DNA of 64,000 nucleotides, from the NCBI GenBank assembly GCA_000091205.1, contig AP006495.2. One strand, 5' to 3'. Below, piece after piece: positions 5,480 to 60,735 of this stretch; the first letter of the stretch is position 1; the number at the start of each line of letters is the position of its first letter. Below the pieces are notes generated by a model, which searched no databases, was not told where the DNA came from, and saw only the letters and a program-made list of their open reading frames with translations. This DNA comes from Cyanidioschyzon merolae (lineage: Eukaryota). The position numbers and the translations under genes were made by a program.

Positions 5480-5870
5480 TCATAAGCTAACGCCAAAAGT
5501 TTACTGAAATTGTCACGTTATGTAAGCGATCTCGCTCGAGCGGCAAAAGAATCCTCCTCTGTCTGTGGCCCTCGACAAAACGGCATTCGACACCAGCAGC
5601 ATGATACCTCGAACGAGATATGCTCCACGAGGCGCCCGTATCCTCTGTTTGCATGAACAAGGATCACGGGCTCGTACTAGAGTCATCGCAACGATCGCTT
5701 CCAGCAGAGATCCTCTTAGCGCTCTGCACGTAAGGGCGCAAAGTTTGAAATTTCACGACTTGTTTTCCTTCCGGCACTCGTTTCCTCGTGGACAACGACG
5801 CTTTCCAAAAATGTTCTACCGAGTCCAACAGGATGCGCTTGCACTCGCAGCGAACAGAATACTCGCCTAG
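5480..5870 (+). mobile_element. Solo R1 fragment (copy F) of the same repeat family
   Basis: 5560-5720 aligns to 1240-1400 and 25500-25650: ...gcattcgaca[cg]cagc..., ccgtatcctctgtttgcatgaacaagg versus ccgtatcttctgtttgcatcgaaaagg. No Fanzor-coding part was recognised. Confidence 0.4.
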
Positions 5871-7142
5871 CGGATCGCCCAGAACAAGCCCGCTTTCGCA
5901 GGAGCGGCACTAAGCGCGGCAGCGGAGGATCGGAACTAGGCGCGCTTCCTGTACCCGTTATGGGTTTGCATTGAGCGATAGAGCAAACGTTGATGCAACA
6001 CAGGGCTGCCCCCGGAGAGCGCTTTGGTGTCCATACGGGAGCACCCGCCAATTATCAAAAGTAATCGCTGCGACCAGTGCTCCATGACTGTTTACAAAAG
6101 ACGATGAAGGTTGCTGGCGATGCGTAGAGATTACAACTGCCGTCTGTGTATAAAGTTCGTCGAGAGATCAGCGTGAAGCGGCAAAATCGCGGCGTTAACG
6201 CTGTGATAACCATCTCTCAACTGCTGACCACGGAGCTGGCGAGACAGGAGCGACCGGCGTATTGAATACCACGGATAAGAGCGTATGAAAGGAAGCAGTC
6301 ACAGAAAAAGCCCGTCAAGACTAGTGCTGATAACAGTGGCAAGCGATACATATTTTAGTCAGTGCGCGCGAATTCGCAAAGCGGACCCCTTCTACTCTGT
6401 CCTGACTTGTATTTGTATAAAGAAGTAGTGAACACGTCGCCCGAGTCAATGGAGACGCGGGAGTCGCGAGCTGCTGTTTCCATAGCGAACGTTGCAAGCG
6501 ATGCGAAAGGCACCACTTCGCGCATAGATATCCAGGTTTGCACTTCGATTCTTCAGAAATGAGCGGTCTCATCCCGTCGTTGCGGAAGTAGTACACTGAT
6601 TCTAGCTTCCTCCAGTAGGCTCCAGGTACGAAGCAGCCTATGCTTTGGGAAAGGTGTTCGACCTTTGGACCCGCAGTCGCTTTTGAAACCTGCTAGCAAA
6701 GCCGCTCACCGCATACGAAGCCGCGTATTCTCTGCGAATAAAAAGTCCGACGTTCAGGCATGAAACCGTTTCGAAACTTTCCAGCGGAGCCTGCATTTCC
6801 AGTAGAACTCAACGAGACGCTAAGACCGGCTACATATATGGCTGGGTACTCGCCCGGTTAGCAGGTACGCTCGCTGAACCTGTGCCCGTTCACGACGCGT
6901 TTCAGTCCCTAGCGCTTGTCGACAGCGGTGCTCGTGAGCAGCAGCTCGTTACAGCGCACATTCAATGAGACATGTAGACTGCTGCAGTCCCGAGCAACGC
7001 CCTTGCCAAGTAACGGGTACCGAGATCCACCGTTTGTACTGCCGCAGCGCCTTGTCGCTGACGTCCAGCTCGCTGGAACCCAACACCGCTTTCAGGGCGA
7101 GCGCGGCGACGCCCTAGTTCGCGTTCCAGCGAGCCGGTCTCT

Positions 7143-10100
7143 ATGCTAGGTAGCTCCGGTGCAAGTATCCAGCGGACCAGGGAGGTTCAGTCCCCAAAAC
7201 GTCGTGGTGACGTTCGATCTTTTGGTCATGCAAAGGCGGCAGGTGTCAGGTCACCACAGGTGACGGGATTCGTCCCGGAACTATGTCCACGCTGGGGCGC
7301 ATGCCCTGCTAGGCAGACTCGTCGCAGACACACAGCAGCGCACTGTGTCGTGCGTCCAAGCAGCGTCTATCCGCGAGCAGTGTGCTCCTTCGTGAGCAGC
7401 AGCTGGAGGCTCGCACTGAAGCACATCGAGACAGCGTCAACTGGGAGCGTCCAGCGACGCTTGCTCGGCCTACAAGCGTCGTCAGACTCGAAGGACTCGA
7501 CTGGGGCACCAACGGCGCGTTTGGAGCCGGTTTTTCAGACCGCAGAACACGTTGCTGCGCACTATGCGGTGGAGATTGAAGCTGGACTCAGTACGAGCCG
7601 TGCTCGCGAACTCTTGCGCATTCATGGACCGAACGCGCTTCCCGAACCGGAACCACAGACGCTCGTTCAACGAGTGCTCAAACAGTTTGACGATCGTCTG
7701 GTGCAGATCCTTCTGGTCGCTGCCGGCATATCCTTTACGTTGGCAGCAACAGCAAAGGAGCGAACGGCTTCCGCGTTCCTAGAGCCTGTCATTATTCTAA
7801 CGATTCTGCTCTTGAACGCTGGTATCGGGGCGATCCTCGAGTCGCGAGCAGACGAGTCCATCAGGGCCATGCGAGCCTATATGAGCGAGGAGGCTGTGGT
7901 TGTCAGGGATCAGGGCGCTAGGTCGTGTATACCAGCGCGGGAGCTCGTGCCTGGTGACGTCATTGAACTACGAGCCGGTGACCTGGTGCCAGCGGATGCT
8001 CGTGTCGTGCGGTTACTCTCGAATACGCTCCAAGTCGACGAGTCGATTCTCACCGGTGAGTCCCTTGCAGTGGACAAATACGTTGAGGCAATGGAGCAGG
8101 CGAAAGATGCACGAGGCACCGGTCGACTTCCGTACCAAGAGCAGCGCAATATGTTGTTCACAGGCTCCGTGTTGACCAGGGGTCGCTGCCTCGCTATCGT
8201 GGTCGCAACTGGCGAAAATACTGCTGTCGGTACAATCCGTGGCCAACTCGTACGGAGAAGCAGCAGCAGCAGCAGCAGCAGCGCTAGTCGCAAGAATGGT
8301 GAAACGGAGTTAGCCACGGAAGCGACTACCGAAACCCCGCTGGTGGAGCAGATGAATCGCCTGGGAGACCTGCTCACCAACCTTGTGCTGGGTATTTGTG
8401 CAGCGGTATTCGCGCTCAATCTTGTACAGGAAATCCAACAAGTACCCCTTGCCATGATCATTTCACAACAACAGGTCGATTTAAGTCGTATTCTCGAGCA
8501 GGTCATCGAATCCTTCAAATTCTCGGTGGCTCTGGCTGTAGCTGCAGTTCCCGAGGGTCTGCCTGCTGTAATCACCACCTGCCTAGCCCTCGGAACGCAG
8601 CGCATGTCGAAGCGCAACGTACTTATCCGCTCCCTGCCCTGCATTGAGACACTCGGCTGCACATCTGTGATTTGTTCGGATAAGACCGGGACACTGACCC
8701 AGAATCGCATGCGCGTCGTGGAACTCGTACCGGTACATGATTCGCTCAAGGAGGCGCTCTCGCTGGTGCTTGCACTCTGTTCAGAGGCCACCCTGGATGG
8801 ACGAGGTGATCCGACGGAGCTCGCATTGCTGCGAGCCGGCGAAGAGCTGCGACCCTCCGACAGTAACCGAGCATTCTGGGAGTCGCATGCACGAATCCTG
8901 CAGGTCAATGAGTTCGATCGTGTTCGGAAACGCATGAGCGTCGTCGTTACCTGCAGCGTGCCGGTTTTGTCGACGGCGAATACGAACGATCACAAAAGCA
9001 CCTACACGTATTCACTAGTCAAGGGCGCACCAGAGACTGTTCTGGAACAGTGCTCCTTCGTTGAGCCAGACGCTGTAGCATACTGGTCAGAGCAGACGAG
9101 GGAACGCTCACGTAGCGGTCTTCGCTGTATTGCACTGGCTATCCGAGAATGCACCAGCGACGCTGCACAGGACAGTGCCGAGAAACAGCTCACGTTCCTG
9201 GGACTCGCTGCCCTGCAGGATCCTCCGCGTCCAGGAGTCCGTGAAGCGATCGCTCGCTGTCGACAAGCAGGTATTCGGGTAGTGATGATCACGGGGGATC
9301 ACGCCTTGACGGCATCTGCAATTGCCGCTCAAGTCGGTATCCTCGATACCTCCATGATCGCAGATGCCGCAGCGGAGAAGAGCGGTACCTTGACGCCTAC
9401 AGTGGTGCTCGGTGCGGACCTCGAGAGCAACCGTTACACCCCAGACCAAGTGGCAGCAGCGCGAGTGTTTGCACGCGTCGAACCGAAGCACAAGCTACAG
9501 ATCGTCGAGACGCTGCAGCGGACCCGCAGCGAAGTCGTCGCCATGACCGGGGACGGTGTCAACGATGCACCGGCGTTGGCTGCTGCGGACGTCGGCGTCG
9601 CCATGGGAACCGGAACCCAGGTTGCAAAGGCCGCTGCCGACATGGTCATTGTCGACGATAATTTCGCTACGATCGTCTCAGCTGTGGAAGAGGGCCGCTC
9701 CATCTACGCCAATATGCGGCAGTTCATCCGCTATCTCCTCAGCAGCAATATTGGTGAGGTGATTGCCGTCCTGGTGAGCTCGCTTTGGCTGCACGTTCCG
9801 GAGATTCTGTCACCGGCGCAGTTGCTCTGGGTGAACCTCATTACCGACGGTTTACCTGCCATCGCGTTGAGTTTCAACCCGACGGATCCGGAGGCCATGC
9901 AACGGCCGCCTCGTCGGCGCGATGAACCCTTCCTACGTACCCAGGGTGGACTCGGTGGTGACCTTGCCCGTTATCTGGCGATTGGTACATACGTTGGTCT
10001 CGCTTGCGTCTTCGGATACCGTGGATTCATAGACAACACCGTCCAAGCGCGCTCCGTGGCCATGTCAGTGCTTGTCACTGCCGAGATGGCCAATGCCTTG

Positions 10101-12887: not shown

Positions 12888-13019
12888 GGTTTTTTATCCG
12901 CTGCATATTCGTGCTGCTAGCTTTGAAGCGAAATGAGGTCTAAATAGGCGGCTTTCGAAGAGAAAACAGCGACGACTACACGAATGCGGATACAGATACC
13001 CACTTGTACTAATTGTACC

Positions 13020-30441: not shown

Positions 30442-33418
30442 TGTTCAGGGGACCGCTGCCGGCGTCTTAGGGAACCAGCCAGAAGCAAGTGGCAACTCCT
30501 GCTACTGCCGTTAACGAGAACATTCCTGTAGTATCCACGAGGTGCATCGTTTCCCAGTTGAGCGATAGTGGCAACTCTCGTTCTCCCCGAGTTGGCGGCT
30601 GGCCTCCATGTGGCCCGCATCGAGCGCACTGCTCGGACACGGAACCAAAACTGTCTGAAGATCGTGTTGCTGATGCTCGGCGAGCCGCAGACGGCACCGC
30701 ATCAGCACCGGCGCCGTGTTCGGTGGTACCGATTCTGGCTCCGAAAACGTCTGGTGTAGTTTCTCTTCTCAATGCAGCACGGCGAGCTAGACTCCTAAGC
30801 GTTCTGGGTCGATAATCCTCAACGATACGTTATGGGTTGCGGATTTGGGTCTGGGTCGCGCCACCTGTTTTGGTGACGCCGGATGGGCCAACCGTTGCTT
30901 CTGAACGAGGCAGTTATGCTCGTTAACTGCAGAGGACGAAGCACGGTCGTGATCGCTCAACTGGAGGCACTTTGGCTATCTGCACGCAAGAGACAGTATA
31001 GACCACGTCTTTTGGGGCATCTCTACACCCCTCGGGGCTCGAACGAAGGGAACTTGATCGATCTGGAGGTATGCATCCGCATTTGGCTGCAGAGAAGATT
31101 CACTGATAGCAGCGCTGGATGCCGCACCTGGTATTTGGCGCCCGCGAGCCCGCTTCAACGAAGGTGATGAAGTCGTATCGTACGGATCCATGGATATCTG
31201 GGGCAACGAGGAGAACGGGAGCCATTCAAGAGGACGGATAGCCCGGGTGGAATCGTTGATGGCAGAGGCGTCGCAGGCATCTTCCGCTGGTGGCAATGGT
31301 GATCCGGCATGGGAAGTCTGAAAACGCTGTATTGGAGGACGCTGCAGCATTGCAAGGCCTGCTGGCCTCGTTTCAAGGACAACGATAAATACGACATACA
31401 CGTGAAGCAGCAGTCTAGTTAGCGTGCTCGATCTATGAACCATCCGCGAGCGAGAGCACGTTGGTAAGACGTGCGCAGCCCATGTCTTGAGACACAGACG
31501 CCTGCTCCAATGCAGCCTCGCTAAAAAAAAGGTGCGACGACACTACGCCAGGAAACAACTGTCGTGAAACGACACTCAGGGGCCGCGAGCCCACAAGGGT
31601 CCTACTCCTGGCTACGAAGCTGCAGATAGTCACCTGCGAGCCGGTTCTGAGCCCCCCTTGAGGAGAATGAAAACCGGCTGACGTTGGCGGTCTATGTCAA
31701 AGCGGGTGCCCTGTGGCACCGACGCGGACGACGACACTCAGAGCTTTCGCTTCTGAGCCATCTGTTTCACACCTATCGCGTCTGTAGGTGTGGAACCAGA
31801 GGCACCGAAACGTCTTCCGCAAGCGCGCCTAACGGCCTTGTACTCCAAGAACTACGGCACGGAGTGCGCTCGTGAGTAGGTTCGCTTCTGACTCGTTTTC
31901 ATCCAGCAAGCTCGGCGGAGCAGAACTCGCCCAAACCGCAACGAGTAACGGTTTGCGTGTACATAGCTCCCCAAAGGTCCAGCAAGTAAACCGAACGCCT
32001 CCGGAGAGCGAATCAAGTGACGCGCAAGGGAAATGGGGGGAAACCCACTCTGTCCGCGGGAGTAGACACTCAGCGGTACCGTTGCACCGTACTGTGTGAT
32101 CTTCCAGCGGACGCCCACAGAGACGTCACAAGTGTCGGCTCCGTGTGCGTCGCTGGCCCAAGACAGAGTGTTCAAAAGCAGAAGCGTCTCGACGACCTGA
32201 ACTCGTCGACAGCCTCCTAGCGTGGTGTCCAGCGCACCAAGAACACCTAAGCGTTTACCGCCAGTTGGCGCCAAATGGAAGGCGCCAGCCGCGTGACGCC
32301 CGCTCTCCGAGCGCGTGGTCGACGTGACGCGTCCAGCGCCTTGAGCTGGTACTTTTGGTTAGACGGAACCCACGAAATCGTTCACTTCACTCCGTATCAT
32401 TTTAGGGAACCTGGTATTCGAGCACACGAAAAGTGCGAGAGCATCGATAGGGGTTAGCAGAGGGAATACGCCCGCGGCAGGTGGTTCTGCTCAAACCAAG
32501 ATATCGATGCATGCCCCTGGGTCGACATTTCACGATGAGCATCTACCCTGATAGCCGGAGCACCGACGTGGCATTCGAGTATCGTCCGGTCGATGCACGG
32601 TGTCACCAGGAGTGCTGGTATATCACCAAAATCCGGACAAGCGATGCATGCAAGCTGGGAGCCTCGTCTGGGTTTCTTTCTTGTGGAAACTCAATGCTTC
32701 TCGCCGAAATTCTCTGGATGCGTGATAGCTGGAGGTAACCAGGCAAGGTGCTGCCTTTCGCCTCCAACTCTTGCATGCTCGACCGGTTCAAGACCGGCGT
32801 TCGCCCAGCAATTCAGGGTACGTGGTTAAGCGGGAATCGTTTGCGGGATCATTTACACTTCAGTTTCATGCACAGAGAGGCACTGCGGGGCGGCCTGGGC
32901 CTTGTCTGGCGACCGCGGCGACGCATCGTGCATCGCTGCTGCAGAACTCTCGTTCGACGGTGAACATGTTTCTGAGTCCATGGAGCCGCAATCCCTCCTA
33001 GAAGAATGGAGGACTCATCCTCGTTGAAAAGCAGCGCTCGCGCACCCCCGCGGCCTCCAAGCACGATTTCCAGCTCCGATTCCAGGCAAGCGTCCAGTAT
33101 TGCAGCAGGGATCCTCTACAGGCTGGGCATGAGGCGTGCCTACGAGTTCCCGATTCATTCTCTTGTTGGAGACGTTCTTGAAAGGGATCGAGCGACGGGC
33201 ACCTGCAGAGGAACTGCGTTCTATCCCGTGATTATCCCGAGCACTCGTCCGTTCAAACGAGTCGGGTAGGATGCATCGATCTCCATCGATAGAAAACATC
33301 GCTTCGGTTGCGAAGCGATCGACGAGCGCGTCGCTTGCGGACCTCGACTGCCATCTTGACTCCTGAGCAGCAACTCTATCCGAGACGACTTCGACGACGA
33401 GCGCTCGTTCGAGTTTTT

Positions 33419-34132
33419 ATGACAGGAAAGGCAGCTTGGCCAGTTTTGCTTTACGTGCCGAACTTGATTGGGTATGCGCGCATAGGGCTAGCTTTGGTCG
33501 CCTTCTGGAACGTACCGCACCCGGCAACGTTCCTGACGTTCTATACCACCGGGTTTCTGCTTGACGCTGCTGACGGCTACGCAGCACGCCTGCTCGGGCA
33601 GTCGTCGGCGTTTGGTGCTGTGCTTGACATGCTGACGGATCGATTCTCTACCGCTGGGTTGCTTCTTCTGATTGCTCTACAGGATCTAGCGAACGCTGGT
33701 TTGACATGCAACACGGTGACGTGCGCTCTGACAACGTGTTTTCGGGTTACTGTATGCGTTGCCCTGCTTATTTTGGATGCAGTGAGCCACTTTTGGCAAG
33801 TGTGTGCCGCAACCCTAGCCCGTGCGACCAGTCACAAAGCCGCAGGTCCCGGACGCCTGGTGAAGCTATATTATCGCCGAAGTGTGTTGACAACGGTATG
33901 CCTTTTTAGTGAGGTGTTTTTGTTGCTGCATTTCACGCGTGTTGCTGGTTGGTCCGCCAGGGTCGAAACTGCCAGTCATATGGAGCTGCTATGGATTGCC
34001 GCATACTACGGTTGCGCTATAGTATATGTGCTCAAACAGTTTATATCTTTGGCCCAGATCTGGAACGCCGCGGCGCTTCTCGAGCTCTCATGTTCTGGAT
34101 GCGGACACGTATCCGACGCAAAACGCCCTTAG
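33419..34132 (+). CDS. CDP-diacylglycerol--inositol 3-phosphatidyltransferase (PI synthase; CDP-alcohol phosphatidyltransferase family)
   Basis: 238 aa from the ATG at 33419. N-terminus LLYVPNLIGYARIGLALVAF and the CDP-OH-P motif DGYAARLLGQSSAFGAVLDMLTDR are typical of PIS. Confidence 0.75.
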   Translation: MTGKAAWPVLLYVPNLIGYARIGLALVAFWNVPHPATFLTFYTTGFLLDAADGYAARLLGQSSAFGAVLDMLTDRFSTAGLLLLIALQDLANAGLTCNTVTCALTTCFRVTVCVALLILDAVSHFWQVCAATLARATSHKAAGPGRLVKLYYRRSVLTTVCLFSEVFLLLHFTRVAGWSARVETASHMELLWIAAYYGCAIVYVLKQFISLAQIWNAAALLELSCSGCGHVSDAKRP

Positions 34133-35645: not shown

Positions 35646-36515
35646 TTAGTCTTTTGCTTTTGATACCGGCCAGTAGGTTCGGCGATAGAAGCGCAGGAAA
35701 AGCAGCAGGTACGATGCATTGCAGAACGTGCTGATCGCCAAGGCAGGCATACCCATGCAACGTTGCGGATTTCTCCAGTACAAGTAGAGATATGGGATCG
35801 TCAACGCGAAACTAGTGATGAATTGCACGATTTGCAGAAGCGTTATCCATCGCTTCCATGGAAACCGCCATTGCATGGACGCATACGCAAAGTACATGTA
35901 CATGATTGTATGGATGGCGGTATTAAACAGCATTCCATAGATTGAAAAATTGAGGCCGTAACGCAACCAGCTCCAAGTTTCGAATACCACCGATGCATGA
36001 TGCCAAACATGTAGCACCGTCAACGGTTTCCCGCGTGCCGCAAGCAGAAACGTATCGAAAAACTCCACCGGTTTCGACAAGTAAAACATGTACAGCCAGT
36101 AGTAGATGTTTCTGGGAAAATTATCGAACGACGAAGAACAGAAGGTGCGCTCTATGCTACCGTCGCTGCGCGTAACCGCAACGACGGCGCTGGCGGCGCC
36201 GAGGAACATCACCCCCGACCAGGCCGAGAGCACCAGGTTGTGCAGAAACGCCAGCAGCCTCAGAGCCTGGTCTAGTGGACGCGACACATGAATGCGCCAA
36301 GCTAACCACAGTATAAACGTGGAAAGAAAATAGAAAAACCAGAAAATCAGCAGCCAGATCGGCGCAGAAAACGCGTGGCTCGTTGCGCTTGGTGATAGTG
36401 TCGACCAGTGCGTCCAGTGTATAGGTACCTTCATACTCCCCGGTCCAGTACGAAGCGTTTCCACTGCAAACTTAAACTGCTGGATAGAAGCCTCCAGGAT
36501 CATATTCAGGTTCAT
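35646..36515 (-). CDS. Fatty acid elongase, ELO family (3-ketoacyl-CoA synthase, GNS1/SUR4 type)
   Basis: 290 aa from the ATG at 36515. ELO histidine box LHVWHHASV and multiple TM segments. A (GCGA)6 simple repeat lies at 36529-36553 just upstream of the start. Confidence 0.8.
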   Translation of the reverse strand: MNLNMILEASIQQFKFAVETLRTGPGSMKVPIHWTHWSTLSPSATSHAFSAPIWLLIFWFFYFLSTFILWLAWRIHVSRPLDQALRLLAFLHNLVLSAWSGVMFLGAASAVVAVTRSDGSIERTFCSSSFDNFPRNIYYWLYMFYLSKPVEFFDTFLLAARGKPLTVLHVWHHASVVFETWSWLRYGLNFSIYGMLFNTAIHTIMYMYFAYASMQWRFPWKRWITLLQIVQFITSFALTIPYLYLYWRNPQRCMGMPALAISTFCNASYLLLFLRFYRRTYWPVSKAKD

Positions 36516-36698
36516 GATTGACAGTCTAACGAGCGAGCGAGCGAGCGAGCGAGGAAGCCACACCTGCGCACATAGCCGCCGCCTGCTCCTGAACTGCAAC
36601 GAGGCGCCTGCGCTTTCGAACGAGCGAACGATGCGCTTGTCACTGGCAAACCGGTACGTTTCTGTCATTCTGCAAGCGCTGCACCTGCGACTTGGCCT

Positions 36699-38855
36699 AT
36701 GAAACCAGATCCTCAAAAAGCCTCCATAAAGCCAGATATACACGCTGGGCGTTATATAGGTGAAGAAGACTTGAGCGATGACGACGACTTTGAGCCAGTG
36801 CTCGAGTCCGGGAGCAGGACGCAGGACGGGACGCCTTACCGAGAGTATACCCTGCGCGTGCTGCCCTGGGTAGACTGGGATAAGCTGTTCACGGATACGC
36901 AGTCTGAACCCAGCGACAGTCTAGAGCTCTCGGACTCTTCACAATCTGGAGATGAAGACGAGCTCGGCAACGATAGCGGCGAAACGGCCGCTAGGAATAC
37001 AAAGGAAGCAGCGGAAGCAGAGTTTGTACGTCGTGAGTATATTCTCGCGCGCTTTCCAAACACGGACGGTTGCACAACCGACAAGCGCGAACAAACAACC
37101 GGTCTTCGCTTTGACCCGAGCACAAAGCTCCCAGTACCGAAACGCGGAGCAGTGCCGCGCTATCAGCCCGGTGGCTTTGCGCGACTTTGCCGCGAGGGCG
37201 AGGAGACCTTGCGTGAACGACTAGAGGCGTTGGAAGAGGCTCAGCGCGTGGATGCACAGCTCAAGGTTGGCAAAGCGCCCTGGTACAAACAACGGCGGGA
37301 TCTGGAGGGTATCGCTCGAATTCCGGAGCGTTATCGGAAACGACTCATCTTGGAGGTCGAGGAAACCTCTGAGCCTGCTCAGGGTGCCTCCGCGTCGGAG
37401 CCGAGCGCTGCCCACATGAGTGACGCGAAGAACGCTGGACGCCCCGAGGCGACTCGTACAGTTCGCGATGATCCCAAGGCGCCCAGTACAAAAAGACGGA
37501 AGGTCTTCTATGGTACCATGGATAGTGCGCTTGGGTCTGATTACTGTCTGATGATTGTTCGAGATGATCGTACCATCGATCTGGTGCCTGTTGGACGCTA
37601 CGCTTGGCATAATTTCAAGTTTGCGCCTAAGTTATCCGATATGGCGAATGAGCGCATGCATCGACGTGACGCTCGGCAGGCAGTGGACGCAACACGTCCA
37701 TCAGAGATGACCGTGGATCGCAGGGGATCGTCGCCTGTAATTGCGGATACGGGGGAGCAGGCAATCACCGTGAGTACTGAGGATGATCCGCTCGTCCACG
37801 TGGAACAGAAACTGAGAGCGCGCGCAGCCTTGGCGGATACCATTCTGGAACGCCGTCGGCATCTCGTGAATAGTTCGTCGCACGCGGCTAGTCTCTGGTC
37901 TGGCACCCAGTGGCAGCGCCCGTTCGTGCGTCGGACCGATGAGGGTGTGCATCCTCCACATGATTCGGAACCCGCTGTCAGTCAAGGGCAGTTAGACCCA
38001 TCTCTGCTGCTGTCGCGAAGAGAGATTGATTCGAGTGATGAATCAAACGCTGAGGATCGTTCTGGAGAAGATGACGTTGATGTCGTACGCGAAAACGGTC
38101 GACACACACCTGAGCGCTATCCAAATGCATCCGCTGATGATGCGTCGGTACTCGCGGCAGCGTTTCGGTATCGGGGGGGCCAGACGCCGTCGTGCTCGCA
38201 CTCGAATGCATCCGGTAGTGGCACCGAGTCGCAAAGTTCGCTTGAGCGTCTCGAGCGCTATCAGGCTGAGGATCCTCTGCGGCAGGGCAGCTTCTCTGAC
38301 GCTGGCGACGATACGGACATGCAGTGGAGGCATCGCTCGGGTCTGTCTGAAAACGGCCGGATGCTGAAACGCCTGCTCGAGAGGGAGAAAACTGCGCAGC
38401 CGCCAGCTGGAGTCGGATTCCGCTCAGAGATACCGCTAACGCGACCGTCTTCGCAGGCACCGTCAGATGCCGGAGCTACGGGCACCAGCGGATACGATTC
38501 TGCGCCCCGCTTCCAGGAACACGAGTCTATCGCGGGATCGGCTGGAGCCAAGTATCCCGGGAAGCCAGTCTCTGCAGGTGAACAGCACGCTGTGCCTTCG
38601 CATTTACTGCCGGCGCCGGATGGAGTTATCGAAGAAATGCATATCAAAGCCGTGTTGCGGTATCTCGCGAGGCAAGGTTCCTACGTTACTGTGAAGGAGC
38701 TCCTTTCTTATTTTCAACCATGGTTTCCAGCGCAAAAGGAGCGTGTTGCTGCTCTGGTTCGAAAAATGTGCACCGCACGCGAGATCCCACCTGGATCAGG
38801 TCGCATCTGTGTGTTGCTCAAGGAGCAGGTGCTGCAGCATGCCCCGGCGTCATGA
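36699..38855 (+). CDS. Transcription initiation factor IIF alpha subunit (RAP74/Tfg1-like)
   Basis: DYCLMIVRDDRTIDLVPVGRYAWHNFKFAP resembles the RAP74 N-domain SYYIFTQCPDGAFEAFPVHNWYNFTP. There is an acidic, low-complexity middle region. The C-terminal HIKAVLRYLARQGSYVTVKELLSYFQPW resembles the RAP74 winged helix. Confidence 0.55.
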   Translation: MKPDPQKASIKPDIHAGRYIGEEDLSDDDDFEPVLESGSRTQDGTPYREYTLRVLPWVDWDKLFTDTQSEPSDSLELSDSSQSGDEDELGNDSGETAARNTKEAAEAEFVRREYILARFPNTDGCTTDKREQTTGLRFDPSTKLPVPKRGAVPRYQPGGFARLCREGEETLRERLEALEEAQRVDAQLKVGKAPWYKQRRDLEGIARIPERYRKRLILEVEETSEPAQGASASEPSAAHMSDAKNAGRPEATRTVRDDPKAPSTKRRKVFYGTMDSALGSDYCLMIVRDDRTIDLVPVGRYAWHNFKFAPKLSDMANERMHRRDARQAVDATRPSEMTVDRRGSSPVIADTGEQAITVSTEDDPLVHVEQKLRARAALADTILERRRHLVNSSSHAASLWSGTQWQRPFVRRTDEGVHPPHDSEPAVSQGQLDPSLLLSRREIDSSDESNAEDRSGEDDVDVVRENGRHTPERYPNASADDASVLAAAFRYRGGQTPSCSHSNASGSGTESQSSLERLERYQAEDPLRQGSFSDAGDDTDMQWRHRSGLSENGRMLKRLLEREKTAQPPAGVGFRSEIPLTRPSSQAPSDAGATGTSGYDSAPRFQEHESIAGSAGAKYPGKPVSAGEQHAVPSHLLPAPDGVIEEMHIKAVLRYLARQGSYVTVKELLSYFQPWFPAQKERVAALVRKMCTAREIPPGSGRICVLLKEQVLQHAPAS

Positions 38856-46864: not shown

Positions 46865-46962
46865 GGCGCACACCGCTGAACGCCGTTCTAAAGTAGAACG
46901 TCGTCGGCGGTGTACAGTAGTAGCGACCGGTGCGCCTTGGACAACAAGTCGCCTACTGACGT

Positions 46963-48913: not shown

Positions 48914-49166
48914 GCATGAAGTGGCGGTTGAATGTCTTGTTGAAAAATTCTCCCGGAACCTCGACTGTTTTGATGCCCATCACGTTGTCGTACATCTCCC
49001 ACGCCAAATGCATTATTCCTGAAGAAGCCTTTGTTATACTCATGGAGTAGCACGCGCCACGTTTTCTGATGGCCTCCCATGACTTTTGCTTGGAGGGATC
49101 CTTGAATTGGCGTAGAACAAATGCTTTCGCCACCATTTCTTCGTACTGTTGTCTTTCAAGTTGCAT
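48885..49166 (-). CDS. Probable N-terminal segment (about 90 aa) of the Fanzor protein, separated from the main ORF by a 1-nt frame shift in an A5 run
   Basis: The ORF MQLERQQYEEMVAKAFVLRQF... ends [11 protein letters not shown] overlapping the main ATG (ggaaaaatg). Removing one A gives a continuous ...[14 protein letters not shown]... Its N-terminus is conserved in the mini-ORF of copy B. Confidence 0.45.
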   Translation of the reverse strand: MQLERQQYEEMVAKAFVLRQFKDPSKQKSWEAIRKRGACYSMSITKASSGIMHLAWEMYDNVMGIKTVEVPGEFFNKTFNRHFMHGTGKMFDE

Positions 49167-50149
49167 TTAGCGTCTGATTTCCAGTCTAAGGTCCCCCGTC
49201 TTTTCATGATTCTCTTGGCTTGGCGCTGTTTTTCTGGAAGCCGGCGACACTGGGCCTCCAGCATCGTCGACTTGCTTTGACATAACTTTTTTATTTTGTT
49301 CTGAAAAAGAACGCACTTTGAACGCCTCTCTTATAAAGTGCGAAAAAACACTCGAATACACTCACTTGAGCGTTGAAACCCCATTGAAATGAAAGACTGT
49401 CATATTGTGCGACTTCAGCACAGATCCAACCAGCACGTGAGACCCACACGTCAACGTATGGTCAGCATAGCGTTTCCATTCAACGCCGTGATACGCATTG
49501 TGTCGTGCATGCCAGATACGGAGCTGCGCGTATCGACCGCGCCATATAGAACAAACAACAGAAACTCACGACTACATACCAGTAAGATAACGATTTTTAC
49601 CCCCCCTCTGCAATGGACGTTAAAAGGGGGAGATGTTTCTATCATGTCGAATGTTTACCTCCTCGGCGGAAGGCCCCGCGAGCCCGACGAGTTTACCAGG
49701 CTCGTGCTTCATGCTCCCCCAGTGGCAGTTGCTATAATGAGACCCGAGCAACTCGTCCGCAATGTAATTTGTTCTTGGACTTGGATCGAGTAGCCTGCGT
49801 CTGGGCGTCGCGTTTGTCGTACTGGATTCCTCATATATCGCTTCACGCTTTTTGCAGGCAATTCCTTTGTCTCCACAAATTGCAGTCTCCCAGCATGATA
49901 ATGAATCCCGAACTCATGTCATTCGTAGCGTTCCTCGATCCGTCGCCCCCCCGTCGTATGGGAAATCCGTTCTTTCTCCATGATGCATCTGCACCAACGG
50001 TATAGCTGTTATTGCTGGTGCTCACGGCAGATAGTCGGCACACGATACAACGCACGAAACGACCAGTATATCCGAGAGGATATATAAGTAATGGAACTTG
50101 AAAGTAGGTTGCAGCAGCATTATGGACGCTTTCCCGAAAACTAATCCCC

Positions 50150-54576: not shown

Positions 54577-56334
54577 TTAAACACGCGGCAATCGCGCTCG
54601 CTTCTCGCTGCGCCTGCCTTGCAAGTCGTTGCGCTGTCGCTCTAGGTCGGGAGCAGAGGCTGCGCGCTGCCCCAAGGCCTCGGCGTGCACACACTGCACG
54701 TGATGCGTTCGCTTCTGCGGAGGCACCGATGCTCCGCACACGATACAGGAACAACGACGCCGATCATCCTCGCGATAGAACAGCAGCGCGGGCGGCAGTT
54801 GGATGCGTTCGCTTTGCACCCACTCGGATGCAAGCAAACGAACAACGTACGCCCGGTAAGCGACCACATTGAACTCAAGCCAACCGGCACGCGGTATCGA
54901 CAAGAAATACCAGACATTCGGTACGACCAGTGGCGGTTGAGACGTGCCGCGCGGGGCTAGCGGAAATCCCAACCGTATCGAAACCGCCGCTGCTGTGCAA
55001 AACGGGGGCTCTGCACAGCTTCGCTGACCAAAGCCGGCCACAGTCAACGATAGATGACCGCTGGCATCCAGTTCCAGCGCCTCCAGCGCCGGTACTTGAT
55101 TCGCGTCAGCTATCATTCGACCATGCAACGGAATCCAATAGAGCGGCGTATCCGCGCAGCTGCTGTTGTGCTTGCTGGGCTCGCGCTTGCACGCACCATG
55201 CAAGGTGTGATCGAGCGTCAATCCAGGCGCATTGCCGTTTCCGTTCCAAACACAGACATCCACGCTCGGGCGCGACTGCCTCGGGCGCTGCCGCCACCGC
55301 ACGCCAAGCGTCAGCTGCGGCCGCCAGAGGCGCACCCGCGCGTCCCCTGGCGGTAGCAATGCGAGCTCATCCAGTAGGAGCAGCATCACCATATCGGTTG
55401 GGGCGCGAATGACCAAATGCGCCGCATCATCCCGCGCCGTCCACGACGCGTTGACAATGACAAGCCGCGCGCCATCCTTCCGCAGACAGAGCGCTGGCAG
55501 CGTCGCCGCCGGTACCATCTGCAGACTCGAGCCCATGACCAGACACAAGCGCGCGTTTCGCGAGTCCTCGGTCGCGCCCATGAGATCCGCTTGCGGCAGC
55601 GGATCCTCCCAGTCGAGCAGCATATCGCGCGTCGATGCTCGCTGACCCCGCCATGCACAGTACACGCACTGGTGACCGGTTCGGCGACCGCCAACCGTGG
55701 GCACAACCACATCATTCAGGAAAATTTGACCACAGCGTTCACACTGTTCTGCGAAAATGTTCCCGTGCAGCTCAGAGAGACGATGACGAGCGAGTCCACT
55801 GCGCAGGTGCAAGCCGTCGATGTTTTGCGTGACAATGCGTCGCACCAAGCCGCGACGCACGAGTTCGGTGAGCGCCCAGTGGCTCCAGGTCGGCGCTGCA
55901 AGCTCTAGGCTGCAGTCTGGCGGCGGCGGCTGCGTCCGCGGGTCGATGACGTCCGCGCAACGCGCCCCGTCTCGAGTCAGAGGCTCGTGCTGCTGGGCCG
56001 CACCCGGAGCAACCCCAGGTCTCGAGCGTCCGTTTTTCGAGCGCGTCGCTTCGGACCAGACGCCGTGTGGTCCACGAAAGTCGCGCACCCCAGCTGCCGT
56101 GGATACACCCGCGCCCGTGTGGACAACAACGTCGCCGCACGCTGCGCGCAACCACTGGGCCAGCACTTGTACCTTTCGTTGCACGTCGAGCAGGCGATCC
56201 CAGTCGGGCGCGAGCCCGAGGCGTCCCTTGTTTTCATACGGGCGCAAACGTCCGGCGTAGTCGTGGGCCATGAAAACGCCGCCGCCTGTTTCAAGTACCA
56301 GGTTCTGGCCCCAGCTGAAACGATCCAGACGCAC
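54577..56334 (-). CDS. Class IV sirtuin (SIRT6/SIRT7-like NAD-dependent deacylase) with a C-terminal extension of about 300 aa
   Basis: VVHTGAGVSTAAGVRDFRGPHGVW, SELHGNIF, CERCG...CVYC zinc ribbon, LCLVMGSSLQMVPAATLP. The likely start is MAHDYAG (56271). Confidence 0.75.
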   Translation of the reverse strand: MRLDRFSWGQNLVLETGGGVFMAHDYAGRLRPYENKGRLGLAPDWDRLLDVQRKVQVLAQWLRAACGDVVVHTGAGVSTAAGVRDFRGPHGVWSEATRSKNGRSRPGVAPGAAQQHEPLTRDGARCADVIDPRTQPPPPDCSLELAAPTWSHWALTELVRRGLVRRIVTQNIDGLHLRSGLARHRLSELHGNIFAEQCERCGQIFLNDVVVPTVGGRRTGHQCVYCAWRGQRASTRDMLLDWEDPLPQADLMGATEDSRNARLCLVMGSSLQMVPAATLPALCLRKDGARLVIVNASWTARDDAAHLVIRAPTDMVMLLLLDELALLPPGDARVRLWRPQLTLGVRWRQRPRQSRPSVDVCVWNGNGNAPGLTLDHTLHGACKREPSKHNSSCADTPLYWIPLHGRMIADANQVPALEALELDASGHLSLTVAGFGQRSCAEPPFCTAAAVSIRLGFPLAPRGTSQPPLVVPNVWYFLSIPRAGWLEFNVVAYRAYVVRLLASEWVQSERIQLPPALLFYREDDRRRCSCIVCGASVPPQKRTHHVQCVHAEALGQRAASAPDLERQRNDLQGRRSEKRARLPRV

Positions 56335-56358: not shown

Positions 56359-59300
56359 TTACTCTATCACGCGAACGTCCGACGAGAGGACTAGGGTCAG
56401 GGGGTTGCTTGCCCTGTCCAGCTCCGTGTCGCGCGCCCTATTCCAGCCTTGTCGAAAGTGAGCGAGCAACCCACAGAGAAACCGCTCGGCATCTCCTGGT
56501 GTAACAGGTTGTAACGCGTTCCCGCTCGTCAAGAGCGCATCCGGTGTGCCGGCCGCAGACGCAACCCGACTAGGAAACGTGCCAACGAGAAACAAGCGGT
56601 CCAGCGACGCGAGGCAAGGCACCAGCCGGTAGAGATCGCGGTCGCCAATGGCGGTGAAGTTCAGGACCAGGCACTGCAGCTGCGGCAACGGTAGGTGTCG
56701 ACGCGCACACGCTCGACCTTGCTGGAGGAGCTGCCGCGTGTCTTCCGGGAAGAGGCTCAAAAACGGCCGTCGAACTGCTGTAGATGAAAGGTCCAAGCTG
56801 TGCAGGCCGTGCAGGTGGTGAGCGATCACGTCTGCTGCGCGATCAGTGAGCTCCCACGCCATCATGAGGTTCAGTTCCCGCAGGCGACCGGGGACCGGCA
56901 GTGCTTGACAGAGCTGGGTAACGCTGCGATCCGTGAGCATAGGCCAGTGCGCGAGACGCAAGGTCTCTAAGGACGGTGCCCGTCGGGCAAGATGAAGTAC
57001 CAGGGCGACGCTTGGAGGGTTCTGCTCGGGCAGCCCAGATGCAGGTGCTGTATCGCGGGGCACGGACTCGTCGAGAAACGACACGAATGACCAGTCCAAG
57101 TGGCGCAGTCGGAGCGTTGGCAGGCGCTCCACCAGGGGGCCGTCCAGCGCCAGCGAACAACCGTGCGCAACAAAGACCTCGAGCCCCGGAAAACCGACAC
57201 CGTGCGAGTTGCACGCTTCTTGCAACACCGTCGTCGAGATGCGCAAACCGGGGTGCTCGGCAACGTTCAAAACTCGCAGAGGCAACCGCAGCAGATGTGC
57301 GAAGATTTCGGGGTGATGGAGACAACCGCTTCCGGGTGTCGCGCGAATATCGAGCTCTTCTAGCATCGGCGGGAGCGCACTGAGCATCAACTCGTTTGTC
57401 AGTGCCTGTGGGTTGAGTTCCGCGAGTCGCAGGACTCGCAAATGTGAGAGTGCCGGCGAGTGCAACGCATTCCCCAAGCCCGCAGCGGTAAGGCGCCAGC
57501 AGCCGCTGAGATCCAAGATGCGAACGGGGCTTCGTTGCAAATGCAGGCGACAGATGAGCTGCTCCACACGTTGCACCAGGTTCAGGAGGACGTCGTCGCT
57601 TATCAGGTCGCAGCTGCCGCTAAGATCCAGCACTCGCCAAAGTGCTGGGGTGTCCTCAACGACCGCACGCCAGGTGCGGCTCACTTGACGGAGGCGGAGC
57701 AGCTCGGGAAACGACAAGTACGTGAACAAGTGCCGCAGGATATCGCGAGCGCTCGCCGCATCACCGAGCGCGTTGACCGGGTGCACACGAGCGCCCGGAC
57801 GAGCGCGCGGTACAACGAAGCTTGCCTCGTTGGACGACACCCCGTCGGTATGGGACGCTTTCCCAAGCAATTCCGGGAATGCCGAGGATGTTGTCTCGAG
57901 CGACATGCGGAAAGCAACCGGTTTGGCAACGTCCGCGCCAGCGATTCGCTGACGTTTGGGCGTTGGAGAGCAGGAGTCATCAGGGATCTTGTTCCATCTT
58001 TCGGCGGGTGTTAGCGGCGAAAGAGACGTCCGATGCTGTGCCGCCTCGGTCCAGGATAGCGCACGAGCTTGAAGATTCATAACAATCGAACTCAGCTCCT
58101 CGATGCATTCGTGAAAAGTCACCTCCGGATAGGCCGGCTGAATGAGTTCCCTCAAAAGTGGTTGATTCTCTGCCCAGTAGAGCGCCTGCAGAATCTGGGC
58201 AATGTGTTTGGCGTCCGATGCGGAAAGCACGCTGGCTTGGCAAAGCGATTGGGCAAGGACAGCGCCGAGCGAGAGACTGTCTCCGACGTGTGCCGCTGTG
58301 GGCGAACCGCATTCCTGGACTGTGCGATAGAGATTACAGAGTTCCAGCAGATACGCTCCGGTGCGCTGGATGTGAGCGTGATCGTGCGAACTCGTTTGGT
58401 GCTGGGCAGCGCGCCAGGCGAGCAAGAAGCCGTCCCATTCGGTTGGCCATGCGAACGAAAATCCCAGCACGTCGGCACACCAGAGTTCCACGTAGAAGAG
58501 GTCTCGCCACTCAAACTGTAGCGCAAAGAAGCGAGCGAGCTCCTCAGTGCCGGGGTTTGTCACCTCATTGTACTTAATGGCGAGCATGGTAGCACCTACA
58601 GCAAGCCAGTCGGTGCGTTGCAAGCGGTGTCGTCGAGATGTGGGGAAGCGAACAAAAGGTTCCCGCTGACTGGAGCAGATGATGTCGAAATAGCTCCACG
58701 CGAGGTGCAGCGTCCGGGGCGAGAGCGCATGTTCGTGGATGAATGCAGCCATGAGACATTTGCAACGCAGCAGGTCTGGCACACACGGCGCTGAGCTGAG
58801 ACGCGAATGCCCGCGAGGCACATGTCCATAAAAGGGCTGCACGGCGGTTTTGATGGAAGCAGAGAGCGCCGCAGCGTTCGGACGCTCCGACTGAGGCAAA
58901 CTCAGATGTTTCAGAAGGTTGAACGCGCGCTCCCAATGCTGCCAGGGTATCTTAGGATGACGCGTTACACCATCGCTCTTGGATGGCGTTGTCATTGCAG
59001 AGAGATTTTCTTTGGATTCGGCTGCGTACTCACATAGACGCTGAATCCGCTGCTGTTGTATGCGAAGGTGCGCCAGCGCTTCGCCACGACAGCATCCTGC
59101 ACTGAGACGATCACCAACAACTGCAAGATAGGGATGCTCCAGCGCCTCCATGGCGCTCAGACGCTTGGTCGGATTTGGATGCAGGAGGCGCCGCATCAAG
59201 TCGAGCCCATCAGAGCCGAAACACTTTTCAAAACGAGCCCGCAACGGACTGTTGGTGCTCAGGGCGGCTTCGATGCGCGGGACCTGCAGTCCATTGCCGA

Positions 59301-60735
59301 AATGCGGCAGCCTGCTGGCTTCTGGCTGGCTATGCCAGCCGTCATCTAGCGGGCCACCAACGGCCTCCGCGATAAGACGCAGCTGGTCCACTTCGCTTTG
59401 CCCACGAAATAGGGCCCGCTCATCCTCGTTGGCATCGTGCACATTGGCAACTTCCGCAATGACGCAGGCCGCAGCCCATAGATCAGCAGCCGCGCTGTAT
59501 CGACGGGATCCCAGGAGCAGTTCGGGTGCACGGTACCACAAAGTGGCTACGACCGGCGTTAGGGCTTCAAATGTGCTTCTGCTGCTGTTTCGATGAAGCG
59601 AATCGCCATCGCTGGCGTCTCCTGTCGGCTCATATACTTGAAGGGGCGCCTCGCGGCCGAGAGAGAAGTTGATGAGCGCAAATGTCTCGTGCACCGCGCA
59701 CGAGCAGGACTCGTGTTTCCCTGTCTGCATCGCGACAATATTCTGTGGGCGCACATCACGATGTACAAATCCCTGCGTATGACAAAACGCGAAAGCCAAT
59801 ACGAGATCAAAAGCGAAGAACCGTGTTCGCTCAAGGTCAAAGGACTGCTTGTACCAATCATAGCGAGCGTTAGCGTAGAAAAGCGTGAGCTTCACGCTTC
59901 CATTGGCTCGATCGAGTGATCGATGCTGCCTCGGCTCAAGAAGGAGGTATCCGCTTTTCTGTTGCAGGTGATAAGAAGGCACATCGAGTCGTACTTCGAT
60001 CAATGGGCACACAAAATGGTGAAACAGCGGAGTCTGAGCAGCCAACCAGAGCGCGATACCGGCTTCGCGAACTTGCTTGTAGCTTAGTCCGTACTCGTCA
60101 TCGTACGCGACCTGATACACATCATCGGTGCTCTCACCATCTGTGTTGTTCGGTGAAGGAGGCAGCGGAATATACACTTGACGAGTCATGAGTGTCGCAT
60201 CGGTTCGCGAACCCGAGGCGTATACATTTTGGACGTAAACCGGAAACGAGAAGCACCGTTGACGTTGTGAGACGCGCAAGAGCTCACCAAACCACACCCG
60301 TTGGATCATGTCCGCGTCTGAAGTCTGCGGTGCAGAGCGCGACGGGGAGCTGGGCGCTCGCTCACCTGGACCCCGTCGCCCAGTGAGCAGCCTTGCCCTT
60401 GTTCTCTCTTCTTCGTCGAAGGGGATTCCCGTTTCATGTTGTCCGTGGCTCAGGAGTGCATGGAAATTGGACGCACCGCTTTCCGCTGAGCTGTTCAAGC
60501 ACTCGAGCTCAGCGACTGTGCAGCACATTTCGCCGCGGCACTTGGGCACCATCCCGACGAACAACGAAAGCCCATGACACGACTGGTGACAGCGAGAATG
60601 CTCTTCGAAGCCGAGTTCAGAGAGAGCACGACACTGCGAGCTGCGACGCATCACTTGCAACAGACCAGGCGCCGCAACAGCACCACAGAGAAAGTGCGCT
60701 TCCGTAAGCGTCAAAAAAAAACAGAAGAACCGCAA
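56359..60735 (-). CDS. 1458-aa multidomain protein: CDK-like kinase domain (DFG replaced by NFS), then a cyclin-box-like domain, then F-box and leucine-rich repeats
   Basis: HRDVRPQNIV, TLWYRAPELLLGSRRYSAAADLWAAACVIAE, DQLRLIAEAVGGPLDDGW (kinase). LAWSYFDIICSSQREPFVRFPTSRRHRLQRTDWLAVGATMLAIKYNEV (cyclin-like). LFTYLSFPELLRLRQVSRTWRAVVEDTPALWRVLDLSG (F-box), followed by LRRs. It is a single uninterrupted ORF. Confidence 0.6.
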   Translation of the reverse strand: MRFFCFFLTLTEAHFLCGAVAAPGLLQVMRRSSQCRALSELGFEEHSRCHQSCHGLSLFVGMVPKCRGEMCCTVAELECLNSSAESGASNFHALLSHGQHETGIPFDEEERTRARLLTGRRGPGERAPSSPSRSAPQTSDADMIQRVWFGELLRVSQRQRCFSFPVYVQNVYASGSRTDATLMTRQVYIPLPPSPNNTDGESTDDVYQVAYDDEYGLSYKQVREAGIALWLAAQTPLFHHFVCPLIEVRLDVPSYHLQQKSGYLLLEPRQHRSLDRANGSVKLTLFYANARYDWYKQSFDLERTRFFAFDLVLAFAFCHTQGFVHRDVRPQNIVAMQTGKHESCSCAVHETFALINFSLGREAPLQVYEPTGDASDGDSLHRNSSRSTFEALTPVVATLWYRAPELLLGSRRYSAAADLWAAACVIAEVANVHDANEDERALFRGQSEVDQLRLIAEAVGGPLDDGWHSQPEASRLPHFGNGLQVPRIEAALSTNSPLRARFEKCFGSDGLDLMRRLLHPNPTKRLSAMEALEHPYLAVVGDRLSAGCCRGEALAHLRIQQQRIQRLCEYAAESKENLSAMTTPSKSDGVTRHPKIPWQHWERAFNLLKHLSLPQSERPNAAALSASIKTAVQPFYGHVPRGHSRLSSAPCVPDLLRCKCLMAAFIHEHALSPRTLHLAWSYFDIICSSQREPFVRFPTSRRHRLQRTDWLAVGATMLAIKYNEVTNPGTEELARFFALQFEWRDLFYVELWCADVLGFSFAWPTEWDGFLLAWRAAQHQTSSHDHAHIQRTGAYLLELCNLYRTVQECGSPTAAHVGDSLSLGAVLAQSLCQASVLSASDAKHIAQILQALYWAENQPLLRELIQPAYPEVTFHECIEELSSIVMNLQARALSWTEAAQHRTSLSPLTPAERWNKIPDDSCSPTPKRQRIAGADVAKPVAFRMSLETTSSAFPELLGKASHTDGVSSNEASFVVPRARPGARVHPVNALGDAASARDILRHLFTYLSFPELLRLRQVSRTWRAVVEDTPALWRVLDLSGSCDLISDDVLLNLVQRVEQLICRLHLQRSPVRILDLSGCWRLTAAGLGNALHSPALSHLRVLRLAELNPQALTNELMLSALPPMLEELDIRATPGSGCLHHPEIFAHLLRLPLRVLNVAEHPGLRISTTVLQEACNSHGVGFPGLEVFVAHGCSLALDGPLVERLPTLRLRHLDWSFVSFLDESVPRDTAPASGLPEQNPPSVALVLHLARRAPSLETLRLAHWPMLTDRSVTQLCQALPVPGRLRELNLMMAWELTDRAADVIAHHLHGLHSLDLSSTAVRRPFLSLFPEDTRQLLQQGRACARRHLPLPQLQCLVLNFTAIGDRDLYRLVPCLASLDRLFLVGTFPSRVASAAGTPDALLTSGNALQPVTPGDAERFLCGLLAHFRQGWNRARDTELDRASNPLTLVLSSDVRVIE

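Follow-up and report, generated by a model that had tools for sequence, protein, structure and literature searches.

Single-chain fusion of a CDK-like pseudokinase, a cyclin domain and an F-box/leucine-rich repeat module in Cyanidioschyzon merolae and three relatives

Cyclin-dependent kinases (CDKs), cyclins and Skp2-type F-box proteins are the textbook example of distinct proteins whose assembly links kinase signalling in the cell cycle to proteolysis. A 64,000-nucleotide stretch of the Cyanidioschyzon merolae genome (GenBank assembly GCA_000091205.1, contig AP006495.2; hereafter the window) contains an open reading frame (ORF) in which, according to an earlier sequence-only reading, all three are joined, and the question raised by this locus is whether such a fusion is real and what its product might do. 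In the ORF list, the frame comprises 1458 codons on the minus strand (window 56359..60735). It had been described as a single ORF of 1458 amino acids (aa); the frame is indeed uninterrupted, but this length counts from a mechanical TTG start, and the translation places the first ATG at codon 29 (window 60651), which gives a protein of 1430 aa. This protein is identical at 1430 of 1430 positions to the C. merolae 10D entry XP_005537034.1 (BAM80998.1, UniProt M1VIM9), which is annotated in GenBank as "similar to cyclin dependent kinase". The codons that precede the ATG are probably 5′ untranslated region and not coding sequence. From the N- to the C-terminus, the domains follow the order kinase, cyclin, F-box and leucine-rich repeats (LRRs), as had been proposed, and all of the motifs quoted for them (HRDVRPQN, the APE within TPVVATLWYRAPE, DQLRLIAEAVGGP, the F-box string LSFPELLRLRQVSRTWRAV and NFS) are present in the protein. 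The positions of the domains, linkers and motifs are collected in the table below.

The CDK-like character of the kinase region was borne out by both profile and sequence searches. The Pfam Pkinase model (PF00069) matches with an E-value of 1.4e-24 and a score of 87.4 bits (cutoff 31.7), over profile positions 91–263 only, which represent the C-lobe, and the best 60 matches among PDB sequences are all CDKs or Pho85 (CDK5 at 6e-26, Pho85, CDK2, CDK1 and CDK3, with E-values from 6e-26 to 1e-21). An alignment with human CDK2 (the human CDK2 and cyclin A2 reference sequences used for the alignments were entered by hand, and a CDK5 row with Asn in place of the DFG Asp was excluded as evidence) revealed an N-lobe that is present but degenerate. 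The glycine loop of CDK2, GEGTYG, is replaced by an insertion that contains LRVSQRQRC, the β3 residue Lys33 is replaced by Arg157, the lysine of the catalytic loop is also replaced by arginine, and the Mg-binding DFG motif reads NFS. The domain further contains three family-specific inserts of ∼35, 11 and 26 aa. Each of the four changes at the glycine loop, β3 Lys, catalytic-loop Lys and DFG is invariant in four of four orthologues, which are described below. Replacements of Lys by Arg and of Asp by Asn are classical substitutions for the preparation of kinase-dead mutants. The missing glycine loop and the NFS had already been noticed in the sequence-only reading and had led it to suspect a pseudokinase, a suspicion that is strengthened by the two Lys-to-Arg replacements. 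Because the glycine loop, both lysines and the DFG Asp are all lost, invariantly in four species, the kinase domain is almost certainly an inactive, CDK-derived pseudokinase, as judged from its sequence.

An atypical kinase that is active, tethered to its own cyclin and to a Skp1-Cullin-F-box (SCF) adaptor, and makes a degron by phosphorylation before ubiquitinating the substrate in the same complex appears very unlikely to us. The Asp of HRD (D299), Asn304, APE, the T-loop Thr and the Arg triad described below are all kept, the C-lobe is the most conserved part of the protein, and WNK and CASK are precedents for kinases that are active without canonical residues. Such an enzyme would, however, have to tolerate four independent losses together, two of them Lys-to-Arg and one Asp-to-Asn replacements of the kinase-dead type, and the Pfam kinase model recognizes only its C-lobe.

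The elements through which a CDK contacts its cyclin and responds to T-loop phosphorylation are retained in the pseudokinase. The equivalent of the cyclin-binding PSTAIRE helix reads SYKQVRE, with the Arg and Glu of PSTAIRE kept. T365, which is followed by Pro, aligns with CDK2 Thr160, and the APE motif follows within TPVVATLWYRAPE (residues 365–377). R195, R298 and R333 align with R50, R126 and R150 of CDK2, the Arg triad that we take to read the phosphorylated T-loop, and the CMGC motif GxSExDQL is retained as well. Six invariant cysteines, all of them absent from CDK2, lie in or beside the domain (C133, C215, C316, C318, C520 and C521; window 59086-60279, minus strand). C133 is located in the segment that replaces the glycine loop, and C215 provides the Cys of the Cys-Pro in an invariant H-F-x-C-P-L motif. 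The 11-aa insert just before NFS contributes C316 and C318 as a CxC, and C520 and C521 belong to a CCR directly after the kinase domain. These residues may form a site for a metal, a cofactor or a tetrapyrrole in what was once the ATP cleft.

The cyclin-like box that had been proposed for the middle of the protein was the weakest of the earlier assignments and scores below the Pfam cutoff, yet it was confirmed by profile search and by fold. The Cyclin_N model reaches 17.8 bits when the whole protein is scanned and 21.5 bits when the region is scanned alone (cutoff 23), and it stays below the cutoff in all four family members. A profile of residues 565–885, built from the four family members, gave 41 matches among PDB sequences, 39 of which are cyclin A2 (best E-value 0.005), and the cyclin A2 alignment extends from the MRAIL helix to helix 5 of the first fold. 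When the same profile was compared with 1.84 billion representative proteins, 11 matches had an E-value below 0.001, three of which are representatives of the family itself. The other eight (E-values from 1.6e-6 to 6e-4) are all genuine cyclins by Pfam, with Cyclin_N scores of 45–153 bits; three of them also match Cyclin_C (two above its cutoff), and cyclin-A, cyclin-A1-like and G1/S cyclin-E1 are among their names. The AlphaFold2 model of the region is all-helical, with two groups of ∼five helices (predicted local distance difference test, pLDDT, 65.8; predicted template modelling score, pTM, 0.47), and the top 50 PDB matches of this model in Foldseek all have the cyclin fold (cyclin A2, cyclin D1 and Brf2), with cyclin A2 as the best match; the alignments span ∼250 columns, with low TM-scores. 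The domain is closest to the cell-cycle (A/B/D/E-type) cyclins. K693 and E722, both of which are invariant, align with Lys266 and Glu295 of cyclin A, residues that we take to contact the CDK in the CDK2–cyclin A structure. The cyclin region is a divergent member of the cyclin fold family (PF00134/PF02984).

The F-box and LRR assignments also held up, the former by Pfam and the latter by fold. The F-box is recognized by the F-box-like model (PF12937; E-values 2.4e-10 to 6.8e-10, 39–40.5 bits, cutoff 24.3) and by the F-box model (PF00646; 8.5e-8 to 2.5e-7, 30.8–32.3 bits, cutoff 20.5), and the motif is present in all orthologues. The repeats that follow remain below the cutoffs of LRR_6 and LRR_4. 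In a phmmer search of PDB sequences with the F-box–LRR region, matches were found to FBXL2 (1e-4), the Skp2 F-box (8e-4) and FBXL17 (5e-3), the F-box stretch being best matched by Skp2 and the LRR by FBXL2 and FBXL17. The AlphaFold2 model of residues 955–1430 (pLDDT 66.5, pTM 0.66) shows a helical F-box followed by ∼11 alternating strand/helix units, and in Foldseek it matches FBXL2 (4e-9), FBXL17 (2e-8), TIR1, COI1, ribonuclease inhibitor, Skp2 (1e-5) and FBXL3. Used alone as a database query, the F-box–LRR region gave no match at E 0.001, including no match to itself; saturation of the candidate list by repeat words is the probable cause. By sequence and model, the C-terminal part is predicted to be a bona fide F-box protein of the FBXL type, that is, a substrate receptor.

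The same fusion was sought in related genomes and found in three relatives besides C. merolae 10D (XP_005537034.1, the window protein). The orthologue from Cyanidiococcus yangmingshanensis (P0072) has 1427 aa and that from Cyanidium caldarium (P0096) has 1351 aa; the third, locus L001 of Logan SRR18192416, is continuous over 1419 aa (ORF 5509..9768), although the gene caller began late and gave 1255 aa. At the DNA level a natural fusion is therefore supported, with an uninterrupted ORF in C. merolae, Cyanidiococcus, L001 and Cyanidium. An annotation or reading artefact, in which two or three neighbouring in-frame genes (kinase, cyclin-like and F-box/LRR) are expressed separately, is extremely unlikely. 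It is true that older gene models split the locus, into 895 + 218 + 211 aa in Cyanidiococcus F1559 (P0003/P0070/P0071) and into 1102 + 301 aa in the EukProt set of Cyanidium (P0004/P0097). However, beyond the F-box the tail of the 1102-aa model fails to align with the orthologues, the newer NCBI assemblies give one full-length model each, and no stop codon occurs over 4.3 kb in any of the four species, at pairwise identities of 34–67%. The linkers stay in frame and carry the invariant CCR and SPLTPA, and the Cyanidium and C. merolae proteins align in a single high-scoring segment pair from residue 91 to 1373 (34% identity, E-value 3e-177). The split models are annotation artefacts, given the newer single models and the unbroken frames, and an open frame of 4.3 kb in four species, down to 34% identity, cannot have arisen by chance. 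The red-alga lineage of C. merolae has very few introns.

The surroundings of the gene are conserved as well. Next downstream (window 54577..56334, minus strand) is a gene whose product is identical to C. merolae sirtuin 6 (BAM80997.1), which identifies the window as nuclear DNA of the alga, and the order of the fusion gene, this SIR2 gene and a nucleoplasmin-like gene is shared by the window and L001. The nucleoplasmin-like gene lies at 50540-51991 (plus strand) in the window and at 12629-14014 (minus strand) in L001, in synteny with SIR2 and the fusion gene in both; in the window it also codes for a very acidic middle part rich in Ser, Asp and Glu and for a C-terminal C2H2 zinc finger. In an exhaustive profile search of the 1.84 billion representative proteins, no family member was found beyond these taxa and none in Galdieria, and for this reason the family appears restricted to the Cyanidium/Cyanidioschyzon side of the Cyanidiophyceae. 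At 90% identity the fusion protein belongs to a cluster of 37 members, and JGI metagenomes account for most of the members listed. One such environmental variant (L002, JGI metagenome 3300025503) differs from window 56362-60651 at 10 nucleotides, with three synonymous and seven non-synonymous changes, and four of the seven amino-acid differences are in the 114-aa N-terminal tail.

Conservation tracks the domain map, in that the domains are conserved and the linkers are not. Relative to the C. merolae protein, and in the order Cyanidiococcus, L001 and Cyanidium, identity is 74, 75 and 50% in the pseudokinase C-lobe, 68, 61 and 30% in the first cyclin fold and 54, 60 and 40% in the F-box. The kinase domain as a whole is 64–75% identical to the close orthologues and 34–50% to Cyanidium, and the LRR is ∼60% identical to the two close orthologues; the linkers fall to 24–46% and the N-terminal tail, which is probably disordered, to 8–19%. 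Within the N-lobe, 57% of the αC segment is invariant, compared with 21–23% of the rest. Invariant runs of at least five residues number seven in the whole protein, LRVSQR, SYKQVR, TPVVATLWYRAPELLLGS, LAIKY, SPLTPA, LMMAW and RRPFL. Because such runs fall there, the strongest constraint lies on the elements that in genuine complexes make up the CDK–cyclin interface, on the segment that replaces the glycine loop and on a double proline-directed phosphosite motif in linker 2. The last of these, SPLTPA, contains two Ser/Thr-Pro sites, and three of the four species carry CSP[T/Q]PKRQR after it (both motifs lie within residues 878–901, window 57949-58020). This second segment combines the complete CDK consensus TPKR in C. 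merolae, which reads QPKR in the other two, with a basic patch resembling a nuclear localization signal. SPLTPA and CSPTPKRQR are candidate regulatory phosphosites or a candidate Cks-docking site; the P-x-T-P within SPLTPA presumably fits the docking consensus of Cks1 for phospho-Thr.

Table. Coordinates in the window of the fusion gene, its domains and its motifs
Feature	Residues	Window position	Strand	Basis or remark
Complete coding sequence		56359..60651	-	1430 codons + TAA stop at 56359-56361; coordinates checked by translation
In-frame codons from TTG to first ATG (28)		60652..60735	-	annotated protein and all database variants begin at ATG
N-terminal tail	1-114	60310..60651	-	8-19% identity to orthologues; 4% invariant columns
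CDK-like pseudokinase domain	115-510	59122..60309	-	Pkinase match, CDK2 alignment, three family-specific inserts
LRVSQRQRC, in place of glycine-rich ATP loop	125-133	60253..60279	-	LRVSQR invariant; no GxGxxG
SYKQVRE, equivalent of cyclin-binding PSTAIRE helix	190-196	60064..60084	-	CDK2 alignment; invariant except last E/D
Catalytic loop HRDVRPQN (CDK2: HRDLKPQN)	297-304	59740..59763	-	catalytic-loop Lys replaced by Arg
NFS, in place of Mg-binding DFG	328-330	59662..59670	-	invariant
TPVVATLWYRAPELLLGS, T-loop Thr through APE	365-382	59506..59559	-	longest invariant run in protein
Linker 1	511-622	58786..59121	-	24-35% identity; model pLDDT <50; invariant CCR at 520-522
Cyclin domain, two tandem cyclin folds	623-872	58036..58785	-	profile search and fold
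LAIKY, invariant cyclin-box helix	690-694	58570..58584	-	carries equivalent of cyclin A Lys266
Linker 2	873-964	57760..58035	-	invariant SPLTPA, residues 878-883 (58003-58020); CSPTPKRQR, residues 893-901
F-box	965-1012	57616..57759	-	both Pfam models above cutoff
LRR solenoid, ∼11 beta/alpha units, FBXL type	1013-1365	56557..57615	-	model, Foldseek, phmmer
C-terminal tail	1366-1430	56362..56556	-	includes predicted long helix

The reading that we favour, and in which we place about even confidence, is that the gene product serves an SCF ligase as its substrate receptor and carries, within the recognition module, a dead CDK–cyclin pair of its own. The F-box would dock on the single Skp1 of C. 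merolae (CMP118C) and in this way recruit Skp1–Cul1–Rbx1. The pseudo-CDK and the cyclin domain would pack in cis like a real CDK–cyclin complex, with the PSTAIRE-like helix and the T-loop contributing the contacts on the kinase side and the Lys/Glu pair those on the cyclin-box side; linker 1, with its ∼110 residues, is long enough to allow such packing. The dead holoenzyme and the LRR arch would bind proteins that recognize CDK–cyclin complexes, which may be CDK inhibitors, substrates with cyclin-docking motifs or Cks, and would present them for ubiquitination, making the protein a single-chain counterpart of Skp2–Cks1–CDK2–cyclin A. Control by proline-directed (CDK-type) phosphorylation may be added to this scheme, as suggested by the retained Thr-Pro of the T-loop and the invariant SPLTPA. 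Several points weigh against a dead holoenzyme of this kind. The AlphaFold2 models are of moderate confidence (pLDDT ∼66) and come from alignments of three to four sequences, and the MRAIL hydrophobic patch of the cyclin is only partly kept (LRCKC, and VRQVV in Cyanidium), which makes RxL-type substrate docking uncertain. In addition, the retained D299 and Asn304 may, by sequence, permit an atypical residual kinase activity.

A published count bears on how the gene fits into the proteolytic machinery of its host, as C. merolae has only five F-box genes (CMC028C, CMI121C, CMJ108C, CMM061C and CMM138C) and one each of Skp1, Cul1 and Rbx1 (PMC11376382, which cites Kobayashi et al. 2011). In the same genome, the phosphatidylinositol synthase gene CMM125C and the ELO-like gene CMM126C form an adjacent pair (PMC4928187). 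The window contains a CDP-alcohol phosphatidyltransferase gene (CDP-OH_P_transf, phosphatidylinositol-synthase-like; 33308..34132, plus strand) that is adjoined by a gene for an ELO-family protein (35646..36743, minus strand), and this pair at 33308-36743 matches CMM125C/CMM126C, which places the window on C. merolae chromosome 13 (M). As the fusion gene lies nine ORFs beyond the pair, it is most probably locus CMM138C. A first guess based on protein order, CMM061C, was discarded when the published cloning primers for CMM055C proved to be absent from the window. The fusion gene thus has an existing GenBank annotation and was probably counted among the five F-box genes published for this alga; neither a locus tag nor expression data for it were found in the searched paper supplements or in the main text of PMC2646357.

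This small set of F-box genes gives weight to the main alternative, in which the binding occurs in trans. The pseudo-CDK would capture a free cyclin, G1 Cyclin 1 for instance, or a free CDK (CDKA) would be captured by the cyclin domain, so that the SCF receptor destroys or sequesters core cell-cycle subunits. We regard such a trap as possible but rather unlikely. In its strongest form, the gene would be the tetrapyrrole-regulated Fbx3 that ubiquitinates Cyclin 1, and the degenerate ATP cleft would be the ligand site. Binding of Cyclin 1 and inhibition by Mg-protoporphyrin IX are reported for C. merolae Fbx3 (PMC3539659, PMC8504449), and it is listed as a haem binder (PMC7209954). The fusion gene is very probably one of only five F-box genes, its cyclin-binding PSTAIRE-like helix is invariant, and six family-specific invariant cysteines occur in or beside the dead kinase, of which C133, C316 and C318 would border the cleft that once held ATP. 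However, should the Fbx genes be numbered in the order of their loci, the name Fbx3 would belong to CMJ108C and Fbx5 to the fusion gene; reviews call Fbx3 simply an F-box protein and mention neither a kinase nor a cyclin domain; and any cyclin bound in trans would face competition from the internal cyclin domain, whose CDK-contact residues are conserved. The locus tag of Fbx3, and anything relevant on Fbx1, Fbx2, Fbx4 or Fbx5, were not found in the searchable literature. An extension of the favoured single-chain receptor, which we consider quite improbable, would unite both lines of thought. The natural CDK–cyclin–Skp2 machine would be an extinct holoenzyme re-purposed as a substrate- and ligand-sensing SCF head and may be, or be a paralogue of, the tetrapyrrole-sensing checkpoint receptor of the Cyanidiophyceae, with a Cys-lined former ATP cleft in which bound haem or Mg-protoporphyrin would switch the PSTAIRE-like helix and thereby select the cyclin, CDK or inhibitor to be ubiquitinated.

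Elsewhere in the window, a second large frame (45050-48913, minus strand) is a mechanical ORF of 1287 aa in which residues 793–1270 form a carboxyltransferase domain (PF01039, 548 bits). Its N-terminal ∼790 aa have no Pfam or PDB sequence match (residues 1–760 were scanned) and contain Lys/Glu/Asp-rich tandem-like repeats together with a 'DEFRTSYTH' motif. The resemblance of this motif to TnpB/Fanzor RuvC motifs had raised a TnpB/Fanzor-like N-terminal half as a candidate, which was rejected because it found no support in Pfam or PDB. This part may be a separate upstream gene or a mobile element that lies in frame with the carboxylase. The GC content at 48001-50000 is 0.488, the lowest in the window.

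If the domain assignments are taken together with their conservation, the fusion would provide direct Rosetta-stone evidence that a physical link among the CDK, cyclin and Skp2-type F-box components is ancient or recurrent, and it would indicate that a CDK–cyclin pair can serve solely as a scaffold for recognition. The fusion may be the reason why a minimal eukaryote manages without separate Skp2, FBL17 or Cks accessory layers, and there could be a connection with the control that tetrapyrroles are reported to exert on the stability of Cyclin 1. With five F-box genes, a single Skp1, Cul1 and Rbx1, gene targeting and inducible knock-down, C. merolae makes the function directly testable. Neither the four-part architecture nor a natural CDK–cyclin fusion was found described in the searchable literature, which did not cover the primary Fbx3 paper, and the fusion is apparently undescribed.

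Comparison with known systems shows which parts of this architecture are new. Like the members of the CDK1/2/5/Pho85 group, the algal kinase domain retains a PSTAIRE-like helix, HRD, the T-loop Thr, APE and GxSExDQL; in contrast to them, it has lost catalytic residues, carries the three inserts and is embedded in a 1430-aa multidomain protein. It is a member of the kinase superfamily in the CDK branch of CMGC that lacks the catalytic residues of an active enzyme, and it adds a clean, conserved case to the few pseudokinases whose structural context is defined. A natural chain with both an F-box and a cyclin is known from cyclin F (FBXO1), the founding F-box protein, which does not pair with a CDK and uses its cyclin domain for substrate recognition. 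In cyclin F, however, the F-box is N-terminal to the cyclin box and there is neither a kinase domain nor an LRR, whereas the algal order is kinase, cyclin, F-box and LRR. Because domain order and content differ, the fusion protein is not a cyclin F orthologue. The sequence-only reading had called the fusion striking; since cyclin F already joins an F-box to a cyclin, only the addition of a dead CDK and an LRR is unprecedented. Among the PDB matches to the cyclin region, the only chain that joins Skp2 and cyclin A is 7luo, which we take to be an engineered construct. The fusion protein shares with C. merolae Fbx3 the organism, the five-gene F-box set and the cell-cycle/cyclin theme (PMC3539659, PMC11376382). 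The closest parallel in overall composition is the human assembly of SCF-Skp2 with Cks1–CDK2–cyclin A, of which FBL17 is the plant functional analogue: both combine an F-box and LRR receptor with a CDK, an A-type-like cyclin and possibly Cks, the F-box stretch is matched best by Skp2 among PDB sequences, and the LRR model matches Skp2 at an E-value of 1e-5. The algal LRR is nevertheless nearer to FBXL2 and FBXL17 than to Skp2, and, unlike in the human assembly, the parts reside in one polypeptide and the CDK is, by all the substitutions described above, almost certainly catalytically dead.

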